A stretch of DNA of 40,994 bases from a virus. Lineage: Duplodnaviria > Caudoviricetes. The position numbers and the translations under genes are program-made. The notes below the pieces were generated by a model that saw only the letters and a program-made list of their open reading frames with translations, ran no database searches and was not told the DNA's origin. The DNA lies in the IMG/VR virus record IMGVR_UViG_3300037515_000096, positions 1 to 40,994 of that record. One strand, written 5' to 3'. Each line of letters opens with the position of its first letter. Position 1 is the first letter of the stretch. Positions 3,904 to 37,043 of the stretch are shown here, in pieces.

Positions 3904-4596
3904 ATGGATGTCGTCTATCTCGTCAAGCACAAGGAGAACAACGAGGAGCTGAGGCATTCGCTGAGGTCACTAACCAACCTGAAGCACGATCGTGTGTGGA
4001 TGGCCGGTCACCGACCGAAGTGGGTGACGAACGTAGGTCTGATCCCTGTTCGCCCACAGGCCAACAAGAACCGGGCTACCACGATGAACCTCCAAGCCGC
4101 CAGTCGGCGGAAGGAAGTCTCAGATCCGTTCATCTTGTTCAACGACGACTTTTTCGTGCTGCATCTACTGGATGAGATCCTTCCTCACCACCGAGGCTCT
4201 TTATCGCAATGGATAACCACCTCCGGTGTAGTTTCGGGATACATGCAGGGAGCACTAAAGACTCTGAAGAAGCTTCGTGAGCTTGGGATCGAAGATCCTC
4301 TTTCTTATGATCTCCATCTCCCGATGATTGTCCACAAGAAGATGATGCTCAAAGCCATCGATCACTGCGAGGGGATCAGAGCCGTACATAAACGATCGAT
4401 GTATGGAAACCTAGCCGATCTCGGTGGAGAGCTTGTTGGGGACTGCAAAATTCGTGACCAGAACACCGTTCCTGGCGCTGACTGGCTTTTCACATCCACT
4501 GAGGATGGGTCGTTTGCTAACGGCAGCGTCGGTGACTACCTACGCGCCAGGTTCTCCGAACCAGGACCATACGAGGAGGCTGGAGAGAACATATGA
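3904..4596 (+). CDS. Stealth-family-like sugar-phosphate transferase
   Basis: DVVY, ELRHSLRSL and SDPFILFNDDFF resemble Stealth CR1/CR2 motifs; HLPM resembles CR3. Confidence 0.7.
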   Translation: MDVVYLVKHKENNEELRHSLRSLTNLKHDRVWMAGHRPKWVTNVGLIPVRPQANKNRATTMNLQAASRRKEVSDPFILFNDDFFVLHLLDEILPHHRGSLSQWITTSGVVSGYMQGALKTLKKLRELGIEDPLSYDLHLPMIVHKKMMLKAIDHCEGIRAVHKRSMYGNLADLGGELVGDCKIRDQNTVPGADWLFTSTEDGSFANGSVGDYLRARFSEPGPYEEAGENI

Positions 4597-4736
4597 GCTT
4601 CGGTGAGTCATTGTGTTGTGACGACCTGTGTCCTCATTGCGGAGCACCGGAACCAGAGATCTATGTCCATGGCCACACGCAATGCCGCGAGTGCGGGAGC
4701 GTGCTGGACCCCTGTTGTGAAGGTAGCCCTCAGTGA
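4593..4736 (+). CDS. 47-aa Cys-rich zinc-ribbon protein (not in ORF track)
   Basis: MSFGESLCCDDLCPHCGAPEPEIYVHGHTQCRECGSVLDPCCEGSPQ; ATGA/GTGA overlaps at both ends, GGAG RBS. Confidence 0.75.
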   Translation: MSFGESLCCDDLCPHCGAPEPEIYVHGHTQCRECGSVLDPCCEGSPQ

Positions 4737-5335
4737 GACTAGATAGAGTACCAGGACTTACATCTAAACGAGCATGCTCTTATCTCAGAGAACTCGCTCG
4801 TATCATCCCGAGCGATCTGGCCATTGTCGAAGTAGGCGTCTTTAAGGGCCGAACCGCGTGCTGGTTGGGTGTTGGAGCCGATGAGGGTCATGGTGCCCAT
4901 GTGTGGGCGATTGATCCATGGGATCTCCCAGGAGAACGGTACCCATTCAAATGGTTGAATGACCCAGCTAAGAAGAACCGCAAGTTGTTCACTATACCGG
5001 ACACCCGTGAAGCAGCTAAGTTTCACATCCAGGAACTCGGCTTAGAAGACACAGTTACCTTAGTTCAGGACTTCTCGGTGAATGCAGCTAACAACTGGTC
5101 TGGTCCAGAGGTCGGTTTGCTTTTCATAGATGGAGATCACCGCGAGGAGAAGGTTCTAGAGGATTGGGAAGCCTGGCTACCACATTTGGCCTCAGAGGCA
5201 ATCGTGGCGTGGGATGACTATGATCCGGAGTTCACCGGAGTTGTCGGTGCCGTGGACAGCATCATAGAAGATGGTTTGCTGGACATGTTCACGGTCGTAG
5301 ACCACCGACTAGCTGTAACGAAACTTCTGCTGTGA
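4733..5335 (+). CDS. class I SAM-dependent methyltransferase (Methyltransf_24-like)
   Basis: VEVGVFKGRT motif I, IDPW, LFIDGDH, WDDY. Confidence 0.88.
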   Translation: MRLDRVPGLTSKRACSYLRELARIIPSDLAIVEVGVFKGRTACWLGVGADEGHGAHVWAIDPWDLPGERYPFKWLNDPAKKNRKLFTIPDTREAAKFHIQELGLEDTVTLVQDFSVNAANNWSGPEVGLLFIDGDHREEKVLEDWEAWLPHLASEAIVAWDDYDPEFTGVVGAVDSIIEDGLLDMFTVVDHRLAVTKLLL

Positions 5336-5979
5336 TCCCAAAGATAATCCACGTAGTATGGATTGGACCCCGGCGTTTACCCGTGAAGTACAAGTCATAT
5401 TTGTCTTCGTGGTCGAAACTTAACCCAGAATGGGAAGTCAGGTTTTGGACGAACGACAACCTTCCGGTGATTGAACATAAGGAAATCTTCAATAGAATTC
5501 CCCACTATTCCGGGAAAGTCAATCTGCTACGGCTAGAGATCTTGGCGAAGTATGGTGGAGTGTACTCTGATGCGGATTCCGAATGTCTACGTCCACTCGA
5601 TGACTTACCTGTTGTTGGAAGATCGTGGGGTTGGCCGTCCCGAAATGGCTTTATCCAGAATGCCACGTTGGCCTGTGAACCAGGAGACGCTACGTTCACC
5701 GCGATGGTGGATGGTATTCCTGACTACTATGAGTTTTTACTCGGCAAGTCCCGAATGCTGTTCACTTATGTGTTTGGATCACATTACATCACACCGCTTC
5801 TTAGGTCTGATGCTGAATTTCAGGAATTCGACAAAGACTGTGGTATAGGCAATTATCGTTATGGTTCCCGCGTAGTCATATGTGAAAGAGCAGAACAAAC
5901 ACCAGAAACATTCATCGTCCATGATTGTGACCGCTCATGGCGTCGTGAGCTTAAAGGAAACACAGTGGTGTTGCAATGA
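5332..5979 (+). CDS. GT32 (OCH1-like) glycosyltransferase
   Basis: MIPKIIHVVWIG, WSKLNPEW, LRLEILAKYGGVYSDAD (DxD). Confidence 0.9.
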   Translation: MIPKIIHVVWIGPRRLPVKYKSYLSSWSKLNPEWEVRFWTNDNLPVIEHKEIFNRIPHYSGKVNLLRLEILAKYGGVYSDADSECLRPLDDLPVVGRSWGWPSRNGFIQNATLACEPGDATFTAMVDGIPDYYEFLLGKSRMLFTYVFGSHYITPLLRSDAEFQEFDKDCGIGNYRYGSRVVICERAEQTPETFIVHDCDRSWRRELKGNTVVLQ

Positions 5980-5994
5980 CTCTGGAGGCACACA

Positions 5995-6264
5995 TTGGCT
6001 CGTGACAGATCTGTAGTGACCGCTGTTCGTCAAGAGATAGCTTCGCTCCCTAAAGACCTACAAGATTCCGGCCTCGCTGCGTCCGCTCTGACCCTCGCCA
6101 AGCGACTACAAGATGCAGGACCACGAGACACCGCCGCGATAGCGCGTGAGCTTCGCACAACCCTAGCTGAACTCCATCTGATAGCGAATAGAGTCCCGGA
6201 GGAGAACGATCCAGTTGACGACATTCTTCGGGAGGCGGCAGCCGAGCTATCGAAACGTACCTGA
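5995..6264 (+). CDS. terminase small subunit
   Basis: GGAGG RBS plus TTG; helical ARELRTTLAEL and DPVDDI pattern; overlaps the large subunit gene. Confidence 0.7.
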   Translation: MARDRSVVTAVRQEIASLPKDLQDSGLAASALTLAKRLQDAGPRDTAAIARELRTTLAELHLIANRVPEENDPVDDILREAAAELSKRT

Positions 6265-21442: not shown

Positions 21443-23839
21443 GTGGCTGTCGTAAATATGGTTGTTGGAGCCACAACTCCAGACGGAGCTACATTCGTTG
21501 CCAAAGTAGACGGCGGCGGTCCAGTCCGGGTTGCAGTTGCAGACAACGAGAACATGACAAGTCCTGTGTTCACCAGCTCTCAAGCTGTGGACGCACAAGG
21601 CGTAGCTAAGGTCTCGATCACCGGTCTCGATCCTGACACGGCTTATTGGTGGCAGGTCGAGGACAATAGCACCCTAGATACAAGCGTCACGGGTCGTCTT
21701 AGAACACACCCATTGCTTAATCTCCCAGCTAGCTTCACTATCGCTGCTGCGTCTTGTGCCGGGTTGAACTCCGCGTTCCCTGGTGACGGCTCAGAGCTGG
21801 CTGATAACAGGCTGAGCAACCATCCTGTGTTCGATACCATCCGTGGGCAAGACCCACTGATGTTTGTTCACTTGGGAGACCTGCACTACTACGACCTTGG
21901 CAGTGATAACCACGGCATCGTAGGTGGTGGGTCGCTAGCCAACTACCGCAGCGGTTATGACGATGTGCTGAACCAGGACAGGCAGCACCAGATTTACCGA
22001 GAGGTAGCTTGGTCATACATCTGGGACGATCACGACTTTGGTCCGAATGACTCGGATGGAACCCATGTAGACAAAGCCAACGCTGCAACGGTATATCGTG
22101 AGAGAGTACCTCACTACCCATTGGATGATGCCAATGGAATCTGGCAGGAATGGCAGATCGGTAGAGTCCAGTTCATAGCCTCTGATGCTAGGTACTACAG
22201 AGACCCCAACAGCGATCCCCAAGGTTCTACCAAGACCATGTTGGGTTCTGCTCAGAAGACATGGATGGAAGACGTTCTAACCAACAGCACAGCGAAGGTG
22301 CTGGTTTGGTTCATGTCCTCACAATGGATTCATCCTTCTGGATCTGACACATGGGCTAGCTTTGTCCATGAACGGGACGAGCTGGTCGAGATGCTCCGCG
22401 ACACCGGCTGGCTTGGTCGGATGGTCATGGTTTACGGAGACCGACATGCTCTTGGTCTTACCGGTGGTCTGAAGAATTCCTGGGGAAGCTTTCCGATTCT
22501 CCAGGCGGCATCCCTGGATTCAAGCTTTGGCGGGTCGTCCTCCAGTCTCTTCGACATAGGGACAGATACCCCCGGTCGGGATCAGTATGGGACCGTTTCG
22601 GTAACTGATCTCGGCAACTTGATCACAGTAAAGCTAACCGGTTGGCAGGGATCTTCGGAATGGGGCAGCTATACCTTTGGTATATCCACGGGTTCTGGTT
22701 CTCCAATCCTCCCTATCGACATCTCCAACACGCTAGCTGGGTCACACCGAGCGGTATTCGAAGCACGTGTCCTGGAAGACTTCCAGACCGGATCAGATCC
22801 GGTTGGAGTCACTATCCCGATTATGGATGGTGACGTTATGTTCGATGGCTCCGCTGGTTCTGAGTTCTTTGCATCATCCGAGATTCAGACAGCAGCCACG
22901 GACGAATCAACAGGCAGGGATCTGTTCCCGCGTAGAGCCAGTGACCTTCTATCTCCATATGGAAACGAGTTCTTCGTTCGTCGCGGTATCGACTTCGGCA
23001 ACGAGATAAAGTGGTTTCCGCTTGGATACTTTCGGATCAATGACGCCGAGCAAGACGATGATCCGGACCAGCCGATCAGATTGACTGGAACTGATCGCAT
23101 GGCTGGAATCATCGATAGCAGGCTGCTAGAGCCGGTTCAGTTCTTGAAAGACAAAACTATCACTTCGGTTGTGTCAGAGCTGGTTCACGATGTGTATCCA
23201 GATGCTCTCATTCTGTTTGATGACAGCAGCGGGTCAAACAAGCTCGGTAGACAACTGGTGGTTGAGGAATCCAGACACGCCGCTCTGCTGGATATAGCGA
23301 ACTCGCTCGGAAAAGTCATCTACTGGGATGGTGAAGGCTTCCTCAGGATCGAAGACCCACCGGACACAAGTGTAGTCAAGTGGCACATCAGGGCTATTAG
23401 AGATGGTGTTCTCACCGAATCCAGCCGTCGAGTTACCCGAGATGGTATGGCGAATGCTGTTGTCGCCACGGGCGAGGGTTCAACTGAAGAAGCGGTCAGA
23501 GGTTTGGCGTTGGATGTAGGCCCAAACAGCCCCACTAGATGGGGCGGGAAGTTTGGCAAGGTTCCACTGTTCTACTCGTCTCCGCTTCTCACGACAGCGG
23601 TACAGGCTAGGAAAGCAGCCAGGACTCTTCTTTTCCAGCGCATTGGAAAACCTTACTCGGTGGACTTTGGTGTAATCCCCAACCCATCTATCCGACCACG
23701 GGACACGGTTCGGATCACACAGAAGAACGGTGAGCGGGAGAAACACATCATCGAAACATGCACACTCCCATTAGTAGCTGGTCGGAACATGACCGGCACC
23801 ACAAGGGAACAGACCACAGTAGAAATCGAAGAGAGCTGA
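21443..23839 (+). CDS. PhoD-family phosphatase fused to minor tail (baseplate hub-like) protein
   Basis: ASC, HLGDLHY, WDDHD, DARYYRD, MLGSAQ, GDRH in the N-half; LSPYGNE, PLGYFRI, NAVVATGE, FYSSPLL in the C-half; one open frame. Confidence 0.85.
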   Translation: MAVVNMVVGATTPDGATFVAKVDGGGPVRVAVADNENMTSPVFTSSQAVDAQGVAKVSITGLDPDTAYWWQVEDNSTLDTSVTGRLRTHPLLNLPASFTIAAASCAGLNSAFPGDGSELADNRLSNHPVFDTIRGQDPLMFVHLGDLHYYDLGSDNHGIVGGGSLANYRSGYDDVLNQDRQHQIYREVAWSYIWDDHDFGPNDSDGTHVDKANAATVYRERVPHYPLDDANGIWQEWQIGRVQFIASDARYYRDPNSDPQGSTKTMLGSAQKTWMEDVLTNSTAKVLVWFMSSQWIHPSGSDTWASFVHERDELVEMLRDTGWLGRMVMVYGDRHALGLTGGLKNSWGSFPILQAASLDSSFGGSSSSLFDIGTDTPGRDQYGTVSVTDLGNLITVKLTGWQGSSEWGSYTFGISTGSGSPILPIDISNTLAGSHRAVFEARVLEDFQTGSDPVGVTIPIMDGDVMFDGSAGSEFFASSEIQTAATDESTGRDLFPRRASDLLSPYGNEFFVRRGIDFGNEIKWFPLGYFRINDAEQDDDPDQPIRLTGTDRMAGIIDSRLLEPVQFLKDKTITSVVSELVHDVYPDALILFDDSSGSNKLGRQLVVEESRHAALLDIANSLGKVIYWDGEGFLRIEDPPDTSVVKWHIRAIRDGVLTESSRRVTRDGMANAVVATGEGSTEEAVRGLALDVGPNSPTRWGGKFGKVPLFYSSPLLTTAVQARKAARTLLFQRIGKPYSVDFGVIPNPSIRPRDTVRITQKNGEREKHIIETCTLPLVAGRNMTGTTREQTTVEIEES

Positions 23840-30954: not shown

Positions 30955-31322
30955 TGGCGCACAGTCTACATTTGACCACTCAGAAATATCCCCGAATCCT
31001 AGGACGACATACCAGGGTTCGAGTCCCTTTCTCGTGGGAGATCAATAGTGAAGTGGTGGACCTTGAATCCGATGGCTACACAGTTCGTGTGTGGGTAGGT
31101 CAGGTCGATGGAACTACTTCAGGACCGTTCTCAACAACGGTCAACGGAACGATAGCTGAGTACAACCTGAAACTGGCAGATCTGGAAACAGCCTCTCCGA
31201 CGCAAGTCGAGAACGTGCTTATCACAGCGGTAGCCGAGAACGGCACCCACACGCTGGTCTCTGACTCCCGTGAGATCAAAGTAGGCGATTGGCCAGGCGC
31301 TGACGACTACGAACCTCTGTAA
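30954..31322 (+). CDS. beta-sandwich-like virion accessory protein
   Basis: GAGGAG RBS, TGATG coupling; last gene of the + arm. Confidence 0.65.
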   Translation: MAHSLHLTTQKYPRILGRHTRVRVPFSWEINSEVVDLESDGYTVRVWVGQVDGTTSGPFSTTVNGTIAEYNLKLADLETASPTQVENVLITAVAENGTHTLVSDSREIKVGDWPGADDYEPL

Positions 31323-31353
31323 GCAAACCTACGAAGATCAATTTCTAGACAAC

Positions 31354-31412
31354 AAAAAACCCCCAGACTTGGGCGGGACCGTTATGGTCCTACTCAGGTC
31401 TGGGGGCTCTTT
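31354..31412. terminator. bidirectional terminator between the convergent arms
   Basis: A run, CCCCCAGACTTGGGCGGGACC-GTTAT-GGTCCTACTCAGGTCTGGGGG, CTCTTT. Confidence 0.85.
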
Positions 31413-31427
31413 GCGTTGCGCCGTCGA

Positions 31428-31760
31428 TCAGGACGGATGAGCTGCTTCGAACTTCGAGACGATCTCGTTGGGCACACGGCCACGGTCTGGGACCGAGAAG
31501 CCATGGCTCCGTGCCCACTCGCGGATGGCTTTGGTGCTCGGGCCAGCCGGACGGACGCTGGTGCGCCGGACTCCACGACCACGGGTGGCTGTCTTGCGAG
31601 CCGCCTCGGTGTACTTGGACAGAGCCTTCCGAAAGGCTGTCCCCTCCTTCTTCGTCAGGTCGATCTCGTAGTCGGCTCCGTCGAGGGCGAACGAAACGGT
31701 CTCCGCGTCCTCATCGCCGGACAGATCCGAGACAAACTTGACGATCTCCTGTCGCGCCAT
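31428..31760 (-). CDS. lsr2: Lsr2 nucleoid-associated protein
   Basis: SDLSG, TVSFALDGADYEIDL, IREWARSHG..V..RGRVP; GAAGGGAG RBS before ATG 31760. Confidence 0.95.
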   Translation of the reverse strand: MARQEIVKFVSDLSGDEDAETVSFALDGADYEIDLTKKEGTAFRKALSKYTEAARKTATRGRGVRRTSVRPAGPSTKAIREWARSHGFSVPDRGRVPNEIVSKFEAAHPS

Positions 31761-31951
31761 TGTTGCTCCCTTCGTAGACGGCACGATCATCAACAGTTGC
31801 TTCTCGACTTCACTCAGCTGGGTAGAGCCCTCGGCTACTACCCAGTGCGAGTGAGGTTCCGTCGATCCACAACACTTCCTCACGCCGTCAAGGAAAGCAT
31901 AGTTCCAAGTGACAAGTCAAATCGAACGGCCTATCGATTGGAGTTTCTTTG

Positions 31952-32024
31952 TTCCCCCGGTGGGACTCGAACCCACGACTCTCCGGTTAAAAGCCGGAAG
32001 CTCTGCCAACTGAGCTACGGAGGA
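31952..32024 (-). tRNA. tRNA-Lys(TTT)
   Basis: Reverse complement TCCTCCG TA GCTC AGTTGGCA GAGC T TCCGG CTTTTAA CCGGA GAGTC GTGGG TTCGAGT CCCAC CGGGGGA A. Confidence 0.92.
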
Positions 32025-32082
32025 GAGCCACTGAGAAGCCACAGAATGGCTCAGGACGGCCTGACAGCGCTCGCCGGTACTA

Positions 32083-32107
32083 GGTGTCCAAGTAGCACCT
32101 TCAAGGC
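32083..32107 (-). repeat. 25-bp intergenic motif, copy B
   Basis: Reverse complement GCCTTGAAGGTGCTACTTGGACACC. Confidence 0.7.
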
Positions 32108-32118
32108 CGCAGAGAGCC

Positions 32119-32349
32119 CTACAGGATTGGCTCAGGGTTTCGCGGGTCCAGCACGTATACGCCTTTGCCCTGGAGTGGCTGGACCCAGCCTCCGATCCGA
32201 AGCTCTACGATCGCACGCCGGACGGTCTGATGAGTGACGCCGTACTTCTTTGTCATCTCAGACTCGCTCGGCAGCGTGCTCCCAGGAGGGAACACACCGC
32301 TGATGATCTGATCCTTCAGGTCGTTGTAGATGTGCTGCCACTTGTGCAT
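32119..32349 (-). CDS. GntR-family winged HTH protein (DNA-binding domain only)
   Basis: I..G...PGSTLPSESEM...YGV...TVRRAI..L......QGKGVYV; TGATG coupling. Confidence 0.9.
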   Translation of the reverse strand: MHKWQHIYNDLKDQIISGVFPPGSTLPSESEMTKKYGVTHQTVRRAIVELRIGGWVQPLQGKGVYVLDPRNPEPIL

Positions 32350-32852
32350 CACTCCGACAACCTCCAGTCGCCACACCCATCGGTCTCGAAAGCCCGGTCG
32401 CCGTTCTTGATCTCCACGGATGTTGCAGCGGAACCTAGGTAGTTGGCTATGACATCTTCGGACTCCCCACCCAGGCCGGACAGCCTAGCCCAGTAGCAGT
32501 CATCCTCGGACTCGCCCTGTGCTCGGTAGGTTCCCGGAGCTATGTCCTCGCCCACCAACCAGATCCCGTTACCGGGGATGGAGCCCTCTTCGATCTCTCG
32601 CTCAACCTCTCGGATCTCAGAGGCACGATCATCCAGACGGTCCTTCCGACTGGATAGACGATCTGCCTCTTCCTGTAGGGCTTCCTCGCGAGCGTCGAAG
32701 GCTGCCATAGGTACGCCTGTACCGGCATCCGGCGTGGCCGAATCCCGACCATCGTAGAACCCAACGGCGTAGCTGACGATAAGAGTAGCTAAGAGTCCAG
32801 CTACCCAGAACCGGTTGTGGTTGGCTTCTCTCCAATGCTGCATGGTTATCAC
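32349..32852 (-). CDS. membrane-anchored exported protein
   Basis: N-terminal TM, coiled coil, GIWLVGEDIAPGTY..CYWARL..GCGDW domain. Confidence 0.8.
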   Translation of the reverse strand: MITMQHWREANHNRFWVAGLLATLIVSYAVGFYDGRDSATPDAGTGVPMAAFDAREEALQEEADRLSSRKDRLDDRASEIREVEREIEEGSIPGNGIWLVGEDIAPGTYRAQGESEDDCYWARLSGLGGESEDVIANYLGSAATSVEIKNGDRAFETDGCGDWRLSE

Positions 32853-33262
32853 TCAGCTATCCCCTCACATGTGACTATGGCGTAGCCACCCTTTGATTCG
32901 TTCTCCGAGATCACTACGCCATCTACAGTGATACGGCATGAGATCGTTCCATGGCTACGATTGTTCTGTGCCAGAATGTAAACGAACTCGCCACGAGAGA
33001 AGAGAACTTCGAGGCCAGCCTCACCTGTCTTGCGTGCCATGGGGATATCAGGGCTGACCTGCTCAGTCCCCGTAGGGGTAGCGACCGTGACATCAGCATA
33101 GTCGGTTGTGCCTTCGACCTCGTACAGCACTTGGGCCTTCGATGGCGTACTGAACGGTAGCTCGGATGTCTCGTTAGCAACAACATCGGTCGGCGTGCTG
33201 GTGTTACAAGCCGCGACAAACACAACCGCAAGGATGGCTGTCAGTACAGCTTTGGCTCTCAT
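32849..33262 (-). CDS. lipoprotein, MmpS-like domain
   Basis: Lipobox VAAC; VLYEVEG...ISCRITVDG...VTC. Confidence 0.78.
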   Translation of the reverse strand: MRAKAVLTAILAVVFVAACNTSTPTDVVANETSELPFSTPSKAQVLYEVEGTTDYADVTVATPTGTEQVSPDIPMARKTGEAGLEVLFSRGEFVYILAQNNRSHGTISCRITVDGVVISENESKGGYAIVTCEGIAE

Positions 33263-33370
33263 CGGTGTTCTCCTCCCTTTTTACTCGTTTCCGTTTAGGT
33301 TAGCAGTTTTCCGAAACGTAGTCACTTCCAGCCGCGCTCGGCGATCTTTACTGCTCTGGTCATATAAGGG

Positions 33371-33407
33371 AAACGGGGTGCCACTCCCCTTAAGAAGCGA
33401 CACCCCG
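33371..33407 (-). terminator. intrinsic terminator after the nuclease gene
   Basis: Minus strand CGGGGTGTCGCTTCT...GGGAGTGGCACCCCG then TTT. Confidence 0.75.
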
Positions 33408-33430
33408 CACCTCCCCGGCTTGTGTTGTTG

Positions 33431-34231
33431 CTAGAACTGCATGCGGCGGCGTAGCCAGAACAAACCGGCACCGGCTGTGGTCAGCAGGATGCCGATGATC
33501 CCGACCGGAAGCAGTGGGCTGCCGCTTTCTGTCTTGGGAGCGGATCCCAGCCCTGCCGGAAGGGAGGTTGGAACTGCGACTACGGACTCCAGATCCTCCT
33601 TGACTTCTGCGTCATCGCACACATGCGCTGTGGACTCATCGGCGGCGATGTACTCGGTCTCTCGGTCGTGCTCTCCGTAACCGTCTCGGGAGTCATATCG
33701 TGCGACCGCTAGCCCCTCATCGATCAAGGCCAGTCCTGTGTCCGTTCCGTTCTCCAAATCAACGTAGCGGAGCAGCCGGTCGTACTTATCCTGATCATCC
33801 CTTGCGCCTGCGGTGAGTGTGACTTCCTCGCCCTCAGCCAGATCGGTCAAGAAGTCGGTGGCTCGGTTGAATCCGCACTCCCCGCGCTCGGGTGTGTCGA
33901 TGCCGATGTAGCGAATCCGTTCTTCCACGTCGCCGCGAGTTACGTCGATCGTGTCGCCATCTACGACGTTGGTGACGGTCCACGTCTCGGTTTCATCCTT
34001 CGGTGTCTCGGCCTCGAAGATGTCCTTCTGGGTGAAGTTGTGCGTGGACTGGCAGGCGAAGCCGTCGTCATTAGCATCGTAGACGTTCCACTCGTCTAGG
34101 TTCTCTACGAGGAACGCCTTGATCTCCTCGAATGGCTCAGTGCAGTTCGGACCGTGATTCGCACTAGCAATGGGAGTGCTTACGAGAAGAAACCCGAGGA
34201 TCGATAGTGCGCTTACGATGATCCGTCTCAT
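33431..34231 (-). CDS. secreted thermonuclease (SNase) with Excalibur-like N-domain and C-terminal sorting signal / TM anchor
   Basis: Signal peptide ending ASA; PNC..DANDDGFAC; VVDGDTI, RYIGIDTPE, DKYDRLLRYV; PTSLPAG, TM, RRR. Confidence 0.9.
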   Translation of the reverse strand: MRRIIVSALSILGFLLVSTPIASANHGPNCTEPFEEIKAFLVENLDEWNVYDANDDGFACQSTHNFTQKDIFEAETPKDETETWTVTNVVDGDTIDVTRGDVEERIRYIGIDTPERGECGFNRATDFLTDLAEGEEVTLTAGARDDQDKYDRLLRYVDLENGTDTGLALIDEGLAVARYDSRDGYGEHDRETEYIAADESTAHVCDDAEVKEDLESVVAVPTSLPAGLGSAPKTESGSPLLPVGIIGILLTTAGAGLFWLRRRMQF

Positions 34232-34232
34232 G

Positions 34233-35528
34233 TCATGCTCCTTCCGTGATTAGTTTGTGCCTTGGTTGCCAGCGGTACTTCCCTTGTACTTTCTGGCCTC
34301 GCGTATCCCAACCTGTCTTTCGGACTTGAGTAACCGCGTAGTACATAGCTGGCCGGATCAGTGTCGCCTGGTAGATCACCAAAAGTGGTGTGAGCAACAA
34401 CCAAGCAATCAGTCTGGACGGAATTGGAATACCAGGCCGCTGAAGGTAGAGCGCTGTCTGTGTGTAGAGCAGAGCCACCCAGTAGGGGATCATCTGCCAG
34501 TATGCAACTCCACCGGTTAGCGGAACTGCTACGAACACAAATCCTAGGATCAACGGATACAGAGCTAGCAGAGTCAGGTTCCAGCAGCGAAGCCAGAGCG
34601 ACCAACCCGTGAAGTTTCTCAGCTCCCAGGGCATGTACCTAATGTACCCCTTGAACCAACGAGTGCGCTGCCGGAATGTGCCCTTGTAAGTCTCGGGCAT
34701 CTCGAACTCGACTATAGCTTCATCAACAGCCACAACCTTGCCATGCTGGAGTGAGTAGTGACACAACCTACGGTCATCGCCGTATGTACCCTCGGTAAGG
34801 TAGTCCTCGGCGTTGTCCACCAAGATCTCTGTTAGGTAGATGGCGAGTGGACCAGAGGTAGGTGCTACAGCACCCACAGAGCTTCTGGCTCGCCGCATGA
34901 CCATGTTCCCGAGACTGATTTCTAGATCCTGTAGTCGAGTCCATATGGACTGCGTTCGGTTCCGAACTAGGCAGGTTCCAGTTGCGGCCTTGTTGTCAGG
35001 ATCGGACATCGCTCGTAGCAGTTGTTCAATACCGTCTGGATTGACAACTGAGTCTGAGTCAACAGTGACAACGAAGTCAGCCCACTCGGCAGCACCAGAT
35101 AGGCGTAAGCCCTCCATCTGTGCCCAACGCTTACCTCTGTTTTTCTGATGGAACCAGACAACCCCAGGAGCATCGAATGGAACCACAGGGTCTTCAGACC
35201 CGTCATCCATCACGACGATCAGATCGGGTGGATGAGTTTGGAGCACCAAGGATAGAACACAAGCGTGGAGGAGTTCTGTCTTCTCGTTGTAGGTAGGTAC
35301 GATTACGACGACCTTACCGGGCGCTACTGGAAGATGACTCCAGCTCGGGCGAGTAGCTGAGGCAGACAGCATCCAAATCAGCATGCCTGCCACCGCTACA
35401 TAGAACAGAACCGCGACATTCCAGGTAGCACCCCACTGCTCCCAGTGAAAGCTAGTGATCAGTGCAGCAGTTATGGCGACGACGGCCCAGGCGGCTGCCT
35501 TATCCCGTCTCACTATGGCGACCCCCAT
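34233..35528 (-). CDS. processive membrane GT2 (hyaluronan/chitin synthase-like); start ATG 35528 or GTG 35513
   Basis: PTYNE, MDDGS, NRGKR, VDSD, SGPL, GDDRRL, QRTRW; TMs at both ends. Confidence 0.92.
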   Translation of the reverse strand: MGVAIVRRDKAAAWAVVAITAALITSFHWEQWGATWNVAVLFYVAVAGMLIWMLSASATRPSWSHLPVAPGKVVVIVPTYNEKTELLHACVLSLVLQTHPPDLIVVMDDGSEDPVVPFDAPGVVWFHQKNRGKRWAQMEGLRLSGAAEWADFVVTVDSDSVVNPDGIEQLLRAMSDPDNKAATGTCLVRNRTQSIWTRLQDLEISLGNMVMRRARSSVGAVAPTSGPLAIYLTEILVDNAEDYLTEGTYGDDRRLCHYSLQHGKVVAVDEAIVEFEMPETYKGTFRQRTRWFKGYIRYMPWELRNFTGWSLWLRCWNLTLLALYPLILGFVFVAVPLTGGVAYWQMIPYWVALLYTQTALYLQRPGIPIPSRLIAWLLLTPLLVIYQATLIRPAMYYAVTQVRKTGWDTRGQKVQGKYRWQPRHKLITEGA

Positions 35529-35652
35529 AGCGAACGAGTAGCACACCGACCACCAGCAGCAGCAGTGCAATTCCGATGATCCAGGACAGACCGAACGAAA
35601 CGCCAGCTACTCCGACAGCCAGGCCAGTCTTCGGTAGTGCTCCTTCGTACAT
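35500..35652 (-). CDS. 50-aa LPxTG micro-protein (not in ORF track)
   Basis: GGGGAGGAAGG RBS; MYEGALPKTGLAVGVAGVSFGLSWIIGIALLLLVVGVLLVRYGGRHSETG; overlaps the GT2 start. Confidence 0.85.
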   Translation of the reverse strand: MYEGALPKTGLAVGVAGVSFGLSWIIGIALLLLVVGVLLVRYGGRHSETG

Positions 35653-35738
35653 AACCTTCCTCCCCCTTATTGGGATCTTGAACGACGACAGGACGCTAAC
35701 ACTTGGAAGACGCCATGGCTACTACTTGGGTTGACAGA

Positions 35739-35846
35739 CTACCTAGCGACTCCAAGAGCGATCAGGACGAACGCCAGCATGGCGATCACCACCAGGGCGA
35801 GTAACCCCACTCCCGCGACGATGCGGTCCGGCTGCTTCCTGATCAT
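35739..35846 (-). CDS. 35-aa single-TM peptide, probably leaderless
   Basis: MIRKQPDRIVAGVGLLALVVIAMLAFVLIALGVAR; TTGTGC-17-TACAGT lies 8 nt before ATG. Confidence 0.6.
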   Translation of the reverse strand: MIRKQPDRIVAGVGLLALVVIAMLAFVLIALGVAR

Positions 35847-35941
35847 GGTTGGCTACTGTACAGCAGTTCGCAGTACAGCACAACGATGCAGCTCAGCGAC
35901 ACTCCTACACACAGGTCGCAGCTTGCTCTAGGATTCCTCGT

Positions 35942-36157
35942 GTGCCAGGTGAGGATGATGAACCGACGCCGGATGCCCTGTGGGATCTGCCCACGGTCGC
36001 TGAGTACCTCGGTGTCCGGCCAGGGACCGTGCGGAGCTACCTAGCTCGTGGACAGATGCCATTACCCGACATGCGGTTCGGTAGGTCATCGGTCTGGAGG
36101 GCTAAGACGATCAAGGACTGGCACGAGGGACGACCGAGCCAACAGGGGGAAGACTGA
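35942..36157 (+). CDS. AlpA/excisionase-like HTH regulator, probably leaderless
   Basis: VAEYLGVRPGTVRSYLARGQMPLPD..GRSSVW...I..W; TAGGAT lies 7 nt before GTG 35942. Confidence 0.82.
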   Translation: MPGEDDEPTPDALWDLPTVAEYLGVRPGTVRSYLARGQMPLPDMRFGRSSVWRAKTIKDWHEGRPSQQGED

Positions 36158-36161
36158 TGGC

Positions 36162-36650
36162 TCATACGTCCGGTACAACGAAGGTCCGCTGTCGCTTGAC
36201 GTGGCGGTCCCACATGACGAGCGAGCCAGCCACCGCCACGTTCAAGCACATGTATCGCGGCGACTCGACTTGTATCAGCGAATGGCAGCGTTCGATCACG
36301 TCCGGAGGTAGTCCATAGTCCTCGGCTCCGAGCAGGTATGCGGCGCGCTCGGGGTGGACGTACTCCGCAAGGTTCCGTGCGGACGGGTCGATCTCGATCC
36401 CAACCAACATGCAGCTATGCGGTAGATGCTCCACTAGATCATCCATATCGGTGAAGTGCATCAGAGGGATGTGGTTCGCTGTCCGGATGGTGTCGCTGGC
36501 TTGACGCCTGTACCGCCGACCGATCGTGAAGATCAGTGAGGCTCCCATCACGAAAGCCGAGCGCCACAGGGTTCCAACGTTATCTTCGGTCTTCGGGTGG
36601 TAGACACCAACGGCGTAGTACCCACGGTCAGGTTGGGTCGGATTTCTCAC
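36162..36650 (-). CDS. SpoU/TrmH-family RNA 2'-O-methyltransferase
   Basis: NVGTLWRSA, LLGAEDYGL, CLNVAVAG SPOUT motifs; GTGA coupling at 36650. Confidence 0.92.
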   Translation of the reverse strand: MRNPTQPDRGYYAVGVYHPKTEDNVGTLWRSAFVMGASLIFTIGRRYRRQASDTIRTANHIPLMHFTDMDDLVEHLPHSCMLVGIEIDPSARNLAEYVHPERAAYLLGAEDYGLPPDVIERCHSLIQVESPRYMCLNVAVAGSLVMWDRHVKRQRTFVVPDV

Positions 36651-36985
36651 TCCCACAGTGCGATCACCACTCGACCTGTGACGGTCCAGCCGAGCATGAT
36701 GGTCCAGCGGTCCCACTCATCTCCACCGAGGACGATAGGGCTCAGCGTCTTCCAGCCGAACCAGTGCAGTTGTGGTCGGTAGAACCAGATCCGAGGCTTG
36801 CGCCACCAGTGCCTCTCTGTGATGTCTGGCTCAATACCCAGAGCCTCCTCGGCATCGCTCAGTGAATCACACAGAACGCACCCTGGGTTCCTGTTGATAT
36901 GGCAGTCCCCTGATTGCGCCGCACCTCGGTAGGCGTACTCCAGGATGATCCCCAACTGGTCTCTGTCGAGAAATGCGTCACTCAC
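36647..36985 (-). CDS. hypothetical protein, Trp-rich C-terminus
   Basis: Coupled overlaps at both ends; start uncertain (TTG 37036 possible). Confidence 0.6.
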   Translation of the reverse strand: MSDAFLDRDQLGIILEYAYRGAAQSGDCHINRNPGCVLCDSLSDAEEALGIEPDITERHWWRKPRIWFYRPQLHWFGWKTLSPIVLGGDEWDRWTIMLGWTVTGRVVIALWE

Positions 36986-37043
36986 AGCGCATTCCGATCG
37001 TAGATCGGTGCTTCCGGAAGACGTAGGCTTTGCCAAGTCTTCA

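Follow-up and report, generated by a model that had tools for sequence, protein, structure and literature searches.

The streptococcal hyaluronan synthase HasA acts alone, glycogenin is primed on a tyrosine, the pneumococcal type 3 synthase is primed on lipid, and the BcsB anchor, PgaD and IcaD serve as small membrane partners of synthases. The anchoring of synthase-made polysaccharides on Gram-positive cells is poorly defined, the known covalent routes being lipid carriers and LCP enzymes. As far as the available part of PMC11750622 goes, hyaluronan synthases (HAS) have no known peptide partner and prime on free sugar, and the available part of a 2026 review, whose section on synthase-dependent polymers treats the BcsA–BcsB pair, names no sortase anchoring route there (PMC13721041 section 8.2.2). 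Here we analyse a stretch of DNA of 40,994 nt (the window), record IMGVR_UViG_3300037515_000096 of a virus (Duplodnaviria; Caudoviricetes) estimated to be 45% complete, in which the gene of a 50-residue micro-peptide overlaps that of a processive glycosyltransferase family 2 (GT2) synthase. The two genes belong to a two-gene system which, like its link to sortase, is well supported, cleavage of the peptide by sortase being predicted from its sequence.

The open reading frame (ORF) of the micro-peptide has the layout of a sorting signal, with an L[PA]xTG motif, a hydrophobic stretch and a basic tail. An initial annotation of the window had described a 50-residue ORF with a strong ribosome-binding site (RBS), LPKTG at residues 6–10, a hydrophobic stretch, neither signal peptide nor passenger domain, and an overlap with the GT2 gene, and all of this was borne out. 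Only five residues precede the motif, so that an N-terminal signal peptide is not present, and the hydrophobic run spans 30 residues, followed by Arg41. The overlap measures 29 nt if the GT2 gene starts at the ATG at 35528 and 14 nt if it starts at the GTG at 35513, which fits the start of relatives better. As for the R..GRH tail also described there, Arg41 stands, but the positive charge is weak in the window copy, amounting to two basic residues with His included. A GGAGG-type RBS lies 6–10 nt 5′ of the start codon, and homologous starts are also preceded by purine-rich sites. Shuffling the window peptide yields LPxTG in 0.17% of cases, and shuffling the family yields L[PA]xTG in 0.7%, as against 64 of the 107 real unique peptides. 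In each of three clades, the differences among relatives fall mostly on the third codon position (605/438/907, 943/630/1696 and 283/193/1099 for positions one to three). Since this excess is found in all three clades and the motif appears in less than 1% of shuffles, the peptide is under coding selection, and the ORF is a real gene. No Pfam or PHROGs match was obtained for the peptide. G17 and R41 are at least 90% conserved among 51 aligned peptides, and a structural model places a helix at residues 22–49 (core predicted local distance difference test score, pLDDT, 84–95), residues 1–20 being of low confidence; a β-hairpin after the motif had been suspected from the sequence, and the model instead gives a low-confidence helix at 9–19. 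The motif-to-Arg spacing is 30 residues in the window peptide versus about 20–24 in ordinary host sorting signals, counted by eye.

The pairing of peptide and synthase recurs widely. A scan of viral contigs with a single protein gave no match, but a scan with a GT2 alignment did find relatives. With the alignment 200 loci were fetched (the best 80 of 226, all 40 viral ones and the best 80 of at least 157), and we kept the 160 with a GT2 of at least 85 bits and enough upstream DNA, 9 incomplete loci and the low-scoring rest being dropped. Of these 160 GT2 loci, 120 have a peptide upstream or carry a homologous helix as part of the upstream gene; the share is 8 of 8 at loci with at least 60% GT2 identity and 20 of 23 at viral loci. 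Four of the upstream peptides were recovered by eye. The initial annotation had proposed translating the DNA upstream of GT2 homologs, and a short M(G)Y...L[PA]xTG ORF with a transmembrane (TM) segment is indeed conserved directly upstream of them; its suggestion of a two-gene system is upheld by this pairing and by the sortase genes that follow the pair at seven loci. Among 107 unique stand-alone peptides, 58 have both Tyr and L[PA]xTG, 18 Tyr only, 6 the motif only and 25 neither. A family profile search gave 282 clusters at 50% identity, and in the best 150 of these the motif is present in 130 and a Tyr head in 129; their L[PA]xTG motifs comprise 25 different pentapeptides, LP and LA both, and the motif-to-Arg spacing is 30–31 in 115 of the 130 motif-bearing representatives. 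Every family protein whose record was consulted is either unnamed or a 'hypothetical protein'. Profile matches of at least 10 bits in 201 loci, from which the profile seeds also came, all lie directly upstream of GT2, and in a reverse test on 401 sampled Actinomycetota genomes the short profile matches examined were directly upstream of the GT2 family (L246, L247, plus centre). When 151 GT2 sequences are placed on a tree, peptides with both Tyr and motif turn up in 17 of its 61 lineages, to either side of the midpoint, and the motif, the Tyr or the whole peptide gene has been lost repeatedly (midpoint root; event order not established). DNA similarity of the window to L082, L083, L002 and L003 runs from the peptide start codon to near the GT2 end, and peptide and GT2 have been co-transferred as a unit. 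A peptide of the window type was not found beside low-GC or low-scoring GT2 loci; two viral contigs (L106 and L107, near 5895-6005) have a short Met-Tyr ORF with LAHTG plus a helix upstream of a low-scoring GT2.

The GT2 motifs reported in the initial annotation are present (D108-D109, D157-x-D159, G250-D-D-R and Q287-R-T-R-W) and vary little or not at all across 59 homologs. The closest cellular homologs are from Streptomyces (70%) and Jiangella (~62%). In sequence and fold the enzyme is nearest to class I hyaluronan synthases. Its model (pLDDT 91.6) has a GT-A domain with interface and TM helices shaping a channel, and aligns with Chlorella virus HAS over 356 residues (Z 31.2, root-mean-square deviation 2.7); the aligned range ends at the gating loop, at residue 452 of the HAS chain, and the last two HAS helices (5-6) are without counterpart. 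Two HAS residues are kept (K218 = Lys133, R296 = Arg212) and three are changed, R287 to Glu203, C307 to Pro223 and the gating-loop Gly to Asp408, the last at a position that is variable across the GT2 family. In the available part of PMC11750622, R287 is the channel arginine contacting GlcA, C307 is the switch-loop cysteine, and G455A in the WGT gating loop inactivates viral HAS. The window GT2 is predicted to work like HAS, yet fails class I HAS membership. Other assignments were rejected, namely the NodC equivalog (110.6 bits, cut-off 550), the PgaC-IcaA equivalog (78.5 bits, cut-off 422.3) and NF053846 (15 versus 520), and a search of the ESM Atlas returned only unnamed clusters. The commonest neighbour of the GT2 genes is a nucleotide-sugar dehydrogenase (42/169 loci; 33/108 among loci with 2 kb on each side), and 10 of 10 dehydrogenases tested are nearer to UDP-ManNAc/TviB than to Ugd models, none being above an equivalog cut-off. 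Because the three HAS residues are missing and the neighbouring dehydrogenase is of the UDP-HexNAc type, the polymer is probably not hyaluronan; it likely contains N-acetyl-hexosaminuronic acid. Hyaluronan is made from UDP-GlcA and UDP-GlcNAc, and the dehydrogenases beside the GT2 genes suggest UDP-HexNAcA instead. Neither in the window nor in its nearest phage relatives does a dehydrogenase lie close by, and phage synthases of the window type would draw the sugar precursor from the host or from the missing genome part.

A class E-like sortase gene comes right after GT2 at seven loci of two clades, six in one clade and the Nocardioides locus L062, whose peptide reads LAAAG. Sortase is present in 46 of 48 host genomes, and the two sortase-free ones (L012, L014; completeness not given) carry motif-less Tyr peptides, as do both Chloroflexota, in which sortase matches are only weak. 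The L[PA]xTG motif varies within the family as sortase signals do, and class E sortases of actinobacteria accept LAXTG (available part of PMC5148588). Host sorting signals resemble the peptide motifs in four of five genomes checked, a thin comparison with few examples, one genome having no signal recovered and another a single one.

The tyrosine head extends beyond the family of the window. In 301 genomes NF058583 (LAXTG_small_WW), the NCBIfam model of a 'LAXTG motif-containing small protein', had no match above its cut-off, and sub-threshold matches led to Met-Tyr peptides beside GT2s in seven of the eight shortest-frame matches, which had been fetched regardless of their neighbours. All seven peptides have Met-Tyr, a Gly/Ala linker, L[AP]xTG and a helix, and each is next to a QxxRW GT2, five PgaC-like and two of NF053846 ('XrtP-associated glycosyltransferase') with exosortase S-like genes; the PgaC-like and XrtP-associated enzymes are 22–26% identical to the window GT2. 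A profile of these long-linker peptides gave seven matches in a second sample of 401 Actinomycetota genomes (five beside QxxRW GT2s, two in ordinary surface proteins), 183 proteins in a large library, of which the best 120 were used, and one partial match, in a 325-aa frame, in 251 genomes of the phylum of genome G001. At two loci (L264:1999-5777 and L265:2553-6285) a Met-Tyr LAxTG micro-peptide stands with an NF053846 GT2, an exosortase S-like gene and a large surface protein, which in L265 is of the PVV-CTERM type. Over 221 proteins of both types the distance from Tyr to motif ranges from 2 to 28 and that from motif to Arg from 21 to 35, while that from Tyr to the Arg at the cytoplasmic helix end is never below 38 (median 42). 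In the peptides found through GT2, at least 40 residues precede the Arg in 75 of 76 that are Tyr-headed; the stretch is shorter in 21 of 31 that are Tyr-less. The linker consists of 28% Gly, 26% Ala and 13% Thr. Of 265 unique family proteins, 239 have a Tyr head, as against 52 of 946 background ORFs, among which Phe/Trp starts (110/946) are twice as common as Tyr. A true Phe head occurs only in motif-less peptides (L037/P0152, L174, L185), and most Tyr-less motif-bearing heads begin Met-Ser. Both Tyr and L[PA]xTG are under selection. Since a minimum-length tether with a hydroxylated aromatic, together with a sortase tag, is shared by unrelated synthases, the simplest account would be that the Tyr has to reach the conserved acceptor site and becomes glycosylated there, the tag serving to bring the product to the wall.

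We propose that the helix docks on the synthase, that Tyr2 primes the glycan and that sortase anchors the resulting glycopeptide, and put the probability of this reading at about one half; priming by Tyr appears to be the best single explanation of the sequence patterns. The peptide would insert without a signal peptide, with its basic tail inside. The at least 17 residues from Tyr to the outer helix end would be enough for the head to arrive at the acceptor site on the cytosolic side, by way of the synthase channel or next to it, and growth at the non-reducing end would push the Tyr-linked end outward. In the short-headed type this push would expose LPKTG only after priming, whereupon host sortase would cut between T and G and link a nine-residue glycopeptide to peptidoglycan; where the host has no sortase, the peptide would remain uncut and hold the product in the membrane. 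The polymer carried in this way would likely be one with N-acetyl-hexosaminuronic acid, and the phage would likely use it to remodel the host surface. More tentatively, Tyr-headed micro-peptides of ribosomal origin could form a superfamily acting as primer and carrier for several processive GT2 lineages, the head of each peptide being threaded to the active site, glycosylated, extruded in front of the lengthening chain and handed to sortase.

A number of observations weigh against this proposal, which is drawn from sequence and structural models. Necessity of the peptide, which the proposal of the initial annotation would imply, is not supported: 40 of the 160 GT2 loci (23 of 61 tree lineages) have none, stand-alone copies elsewhere were absent from five peptide-less genomes, and the 25 of 107 peptides with neither Tyr nor motif are helix only. 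Among the peptide-less enzymes, 20 of 35 are canonical HAS-like and may self-prime, but 15 of 35 are not; enzymes with the canonical HAS signature lack the peptide in 20 of 31 cases versus 15 of 114 without it (kinship uncorrected). At six loci (L043, L090:4905-5939, L141, L143, L148, L187) a peptide-like helix with a basic tail forms the C-terminus of a polysaccharide deacetylase directly upstream of GT2. A clade typified by phage Kromp keeps LAxTG without Tyr, and the Kromp GT2 has MYxRW for QxxRW. As to sortase, such a gene is present at only 4 of the 108 loci that have 2 kb of DNA to either side, and the motif has also been lost in sortase-rich genomes (L010, L039, L081, L029-L034). A nucleotide-sugar dehydrogenase was not found in the 45% complete record that the window represents, and we know of no precedent for a peptide threaded through a glycan channel. 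Co-folding of peptide and GT2, suggested as a check in the initial annotation, gave 0.54 against 0.00 for the best control, with contact agreement of at least 59% and partner pLDDT of at least 59 but no interface given; the support is weak. Of 157 solved pairs 116 attain this mark, as do 2 of 215 mismatched ones, but a score of 0.60 or under accounts for only 18 of the 157 and for both mismatches. The spacing rule is itself partly subject to ascertainment, as the profiles are biased towards Tyr and a length near 50 residues, the set of 221 proteins consists of two clusters of kin, and the starts of Tyr-less peptides are less certain.

Because helix-only and deacetylase-fused forms exist, the helix has a role even without Tyr or motif, and to this extent another suggestion of the initial annotation, a small synthase subunit, is partly true. 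The whole peptide could then be an accessory subunit whose helix completes or seals the short four-helix synthase, much as the BcsB anchor, PgaD and IcaD do for theirs, whose head touches the polymer non-covalently and whose sortase tag matures or positions the subunit. The persistence of those reduced forms, the want of a counterpart of HAS helices 5-6 in the window GT2 and the weak co-folding signal would fit such a role, as would the lateral opening in viral HAS that has been linked to early chain release (available part of PMC11750622). In three GT2s (P0080, Actinomyces oris P0126 and L168) the N-terminus bears an additional helix with a basic tail, which would fit a subunit fused to its enzyme, but these helices have no significant score against the peptide profiles, so that the fusion can be argued from topology only; moreover, additional helices were counted at 5 of 39 loci lacking the peptide and at 8 of 120 having it, and fusion would thus leave most peptide-less enzymes unaccounted for. 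We consider a pure subunit rather unlikely, since it leaves unexplained both the recurrence of a Tyr head and a length floor with GT2 lineages 22–26% identical and the absence of Phe substitution. In A. oris (L243:4638-6188, WP_271289494.1) the GT2 homolog with the extra N-terminal helix and basic tail lies downstream of a deacetylase. Fusion of a whole peptide to a larger protein was not detected at E 0.01 among 7999 longer candidates, which is weak evidence.

It could also be that the Tyr head sits in the acceptor site or the channel and keeps the synthase closed, opening it only when sortase draws the head onto lipid II; the peptide would then carry no covalent glycan, and polymer export would be coupled to sites of wall growth. 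Such a plug predicts the same distance floor, small-residue linker and need for a sortase motif as priming does. However, a plug that had lost its motif would have no means of removal, and 18 of 107 peptides, including those of both sortase-free genomes, are Tyr-only; aromatic stacking alone should in addition tolerate Phe, and we regard a gate of this kind as improbable. The idea of a sortase decoy, raised in the initial annotation, fits poorly. In that case the peptide would compete for sortase or the cross-bridge, block the anchoring of host surface proteins that serve as phage receptors, and be merely co-located with the synthase. The minimal substrate architecture and the frequency in phages (20 of 23 viral loci) would agree with it, whereas the confinement of profile matches to positions directly upstream of GT2 in the 201 seed loci, the chromosomal location of most cassettes, several of which bring their own sortase, and the persistence of the peptide without its motif make a decoy very improbable indeed. 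Priming by Tyr followed by sortase anchoring remains the reading we prefer.

The cassette is common in actinophage contigs, and an integrase adjoins it in L082, L083 and L085. Kromp, a phage isolate able to grow on S. coelicolor M145 (available part of bioRxiv 10.1101/2025.09.03.674096), also has the cassette, as gp78-gp79 and in a Tyr-less variant. The Kromp locus (L242:3166-4844) and L096-L100 combine a Tyr-less LAxTG peptide with an MYxRW GT2, and in the L096-L100 clade SDDS replaces GDDR. Conversion of the host surface that hinders other phages, which the initial annotation put down to masked receptors, is a plausible but hypothetical role, and for phage biology the cassette points to host-surface conversion by actinophages. 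If priming and anchoring occur as proposed, two machines that are each well studied would be linked in a novel manner through a primer peptide recognised by sortase, hundreds of small proteins now without annotation would receive a named function, and a two-gene tool would become available for the cell display of defined glycans or for the production of glycan-peptide conjugates. Should the superfamily prove real, it would amount to a route to wall-anchored polysaccharide without lipid carrier or LCP, borne by phages as a 1.4-kb surface-conversion cassette. All this is directly testable, as Streptomyces strains carry the cassette and Kromp has been isolated.

Table. Features of the peptide–synthase cassette in the window
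Feature	Position	Strand	Basis
Micro-peptide gene, 50 aa	35500..35652	(-)	Met-Tyr head, LPKTG, hydrophobic stretch, basic tail
RBS of micro-peptide gene, G-rich with GGAGG	35659..35666	(-)	seen directly
Tyr2 codon, proposed glycan acceptor (inferred)	35647..35649	(-)	Tyr-head conservation and minimum spacing from helix end
LPKTG sortase motif, residues 6-10	35623..35637	(-)	L[PA]xTG in 130/150 best family representatives
Residues 11-41: small/hydrophobic spacer, TM helix (~22-40), conserved Arg41	35530..35622	(-)	alignment and model
Processive GT2 synthase, class I hyaluronan-synthase fold, 431 aa (426 from GTG 35513)	34233..35528	(-)	Pfam GT2; model
GDDR motif (catalytic base), residues 250-253	34770..34781	(-)	sequence, homologs
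QxxRW motif (QRTRW), residues 287-291	34656..34670	(-)	sequence, homologs
Gating-loop-like WDTRG, residues 407-411 (HAS: WGT)	34296..34310	(-)	alignment; DNA similarity to related cassettes stops here

The window is that of an actinophage-like tailed phage. Its plus strand encodes terminase, portal, capsid, tape-measure and amidase proteins, and its minus strand Lsr2, GntR and other small genes. Over 33096-36600 an 8-kb contig from run X1 is identical to it; this contig possibly comes from the source sample and is not taken as independent confirmation. No integrase was found in the window, a record 45% complete that does not show absence from the phage, and no sigma-70-type promoter within 31000-37000. 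A thermonuclease (SNase) gene (33431-34231, minus strand) begins 1 nt past the GT2 stop. Its product has an N-terminal signal-like stretch and a C-terminal tail resembling a sorting signal (GVDTG-type model 21.5 bits, cut-off 29), and may be a second phage-encoded wall-anchored protein, although it does not recur beside GT2 homologs. Past the nuclease, an envelope and regulatory run (31428-33262, minus strand) encodes a lipoprotein-like protein of 137 aa, an Rv1352/Rv1906c-domain protein, a GntR regulator and Lsr2. Upstream of the peptide gene, 35743-36157 holds a hydrophobic ORF of 35-46 aa (minus strand) and an excisionase-like helix-turn-helix gene (plus strand), after which come SpoU methylase and polynucleotide kinase genes. 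Elsewhere on the plus strand, a Stealth-like protein, a methyltransferase and a DXD glycosyltransferase are encoded just 5′ of the terminase gene (3904-5979), a set which we take to resemble the virion-glycosylation modules of actinophages, and a tail-region protein (21443-23839) has a PhoD-like phosphatase fused to DUF5047.

Compared with known systems, the window GT2 finds its best sequence and fold matches in class I HAS (Chlorella virus HAS, Xenopus HAS1 and streptococcal HasA with HasB), with which it shares D, DxD, GDDR, QxxRW and the residues K218 and R296, and the nucleotide-sugar dehydrogenase as commonest GT2 neighbour recalls the HasA-HasB pair. It differs from HAS in Glu203, Pro223, WDT for WGT and a shorter priming loop. 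With the LPXTG and LAXTG substrates of class A and E sortases, chaplins among them, the micro-peptide has in common the motif, hydrophobic stretch and basic tail (available part of PMC5148588), but unlike these it has no signal peptide and no passenger domain, would yield a product of about nine residues, and belongs to a family in which the motif-to-Arg distance is fixed (30-31 in 115/130). NF058583 describes curated small stand-alone LAXTG proteins similar to the micro-peptide, and NF053846 models one partner enzyme of related peptides; membership of NF058583 was rejected, the best peptide scoring 35.9 bits and that of the window 9.3, with 0 of 90 representatives reaching the 65-bit cut-off. 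The nearest case known, GspA/LcpA of Actinomyces oris, offers a wall-anchored protein carrying a glycopolymer in an actinobacterium, in which an extracellular LCP enzyme moves the finished polymer to a full-size secreted protein (available part of PMC6381275). The micro-peptide differs from GspA in being a 50-residue partner beside a processive synthase, and neither an LCP enzyme nor a ligase was recurrent in the neighbour families that were scanned at the GT2 loci. Glycogenin, the type 3 synthase and BcsB/PgaD/IcaD each resemble one side of the proposal, and none is known to join a peptide primer to a sortase tag. A description of the module was not found in the titles and abstract beginnings searched, which did not cover subscription journals and supplements, and NCBIfam notes may already link such peptides to GT2. 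The carrier mechanism is likely but unproven, while the peptide–synthase–sortase module is real, undescribed in the literature searched, and widespread in actinobacteria and their phages.

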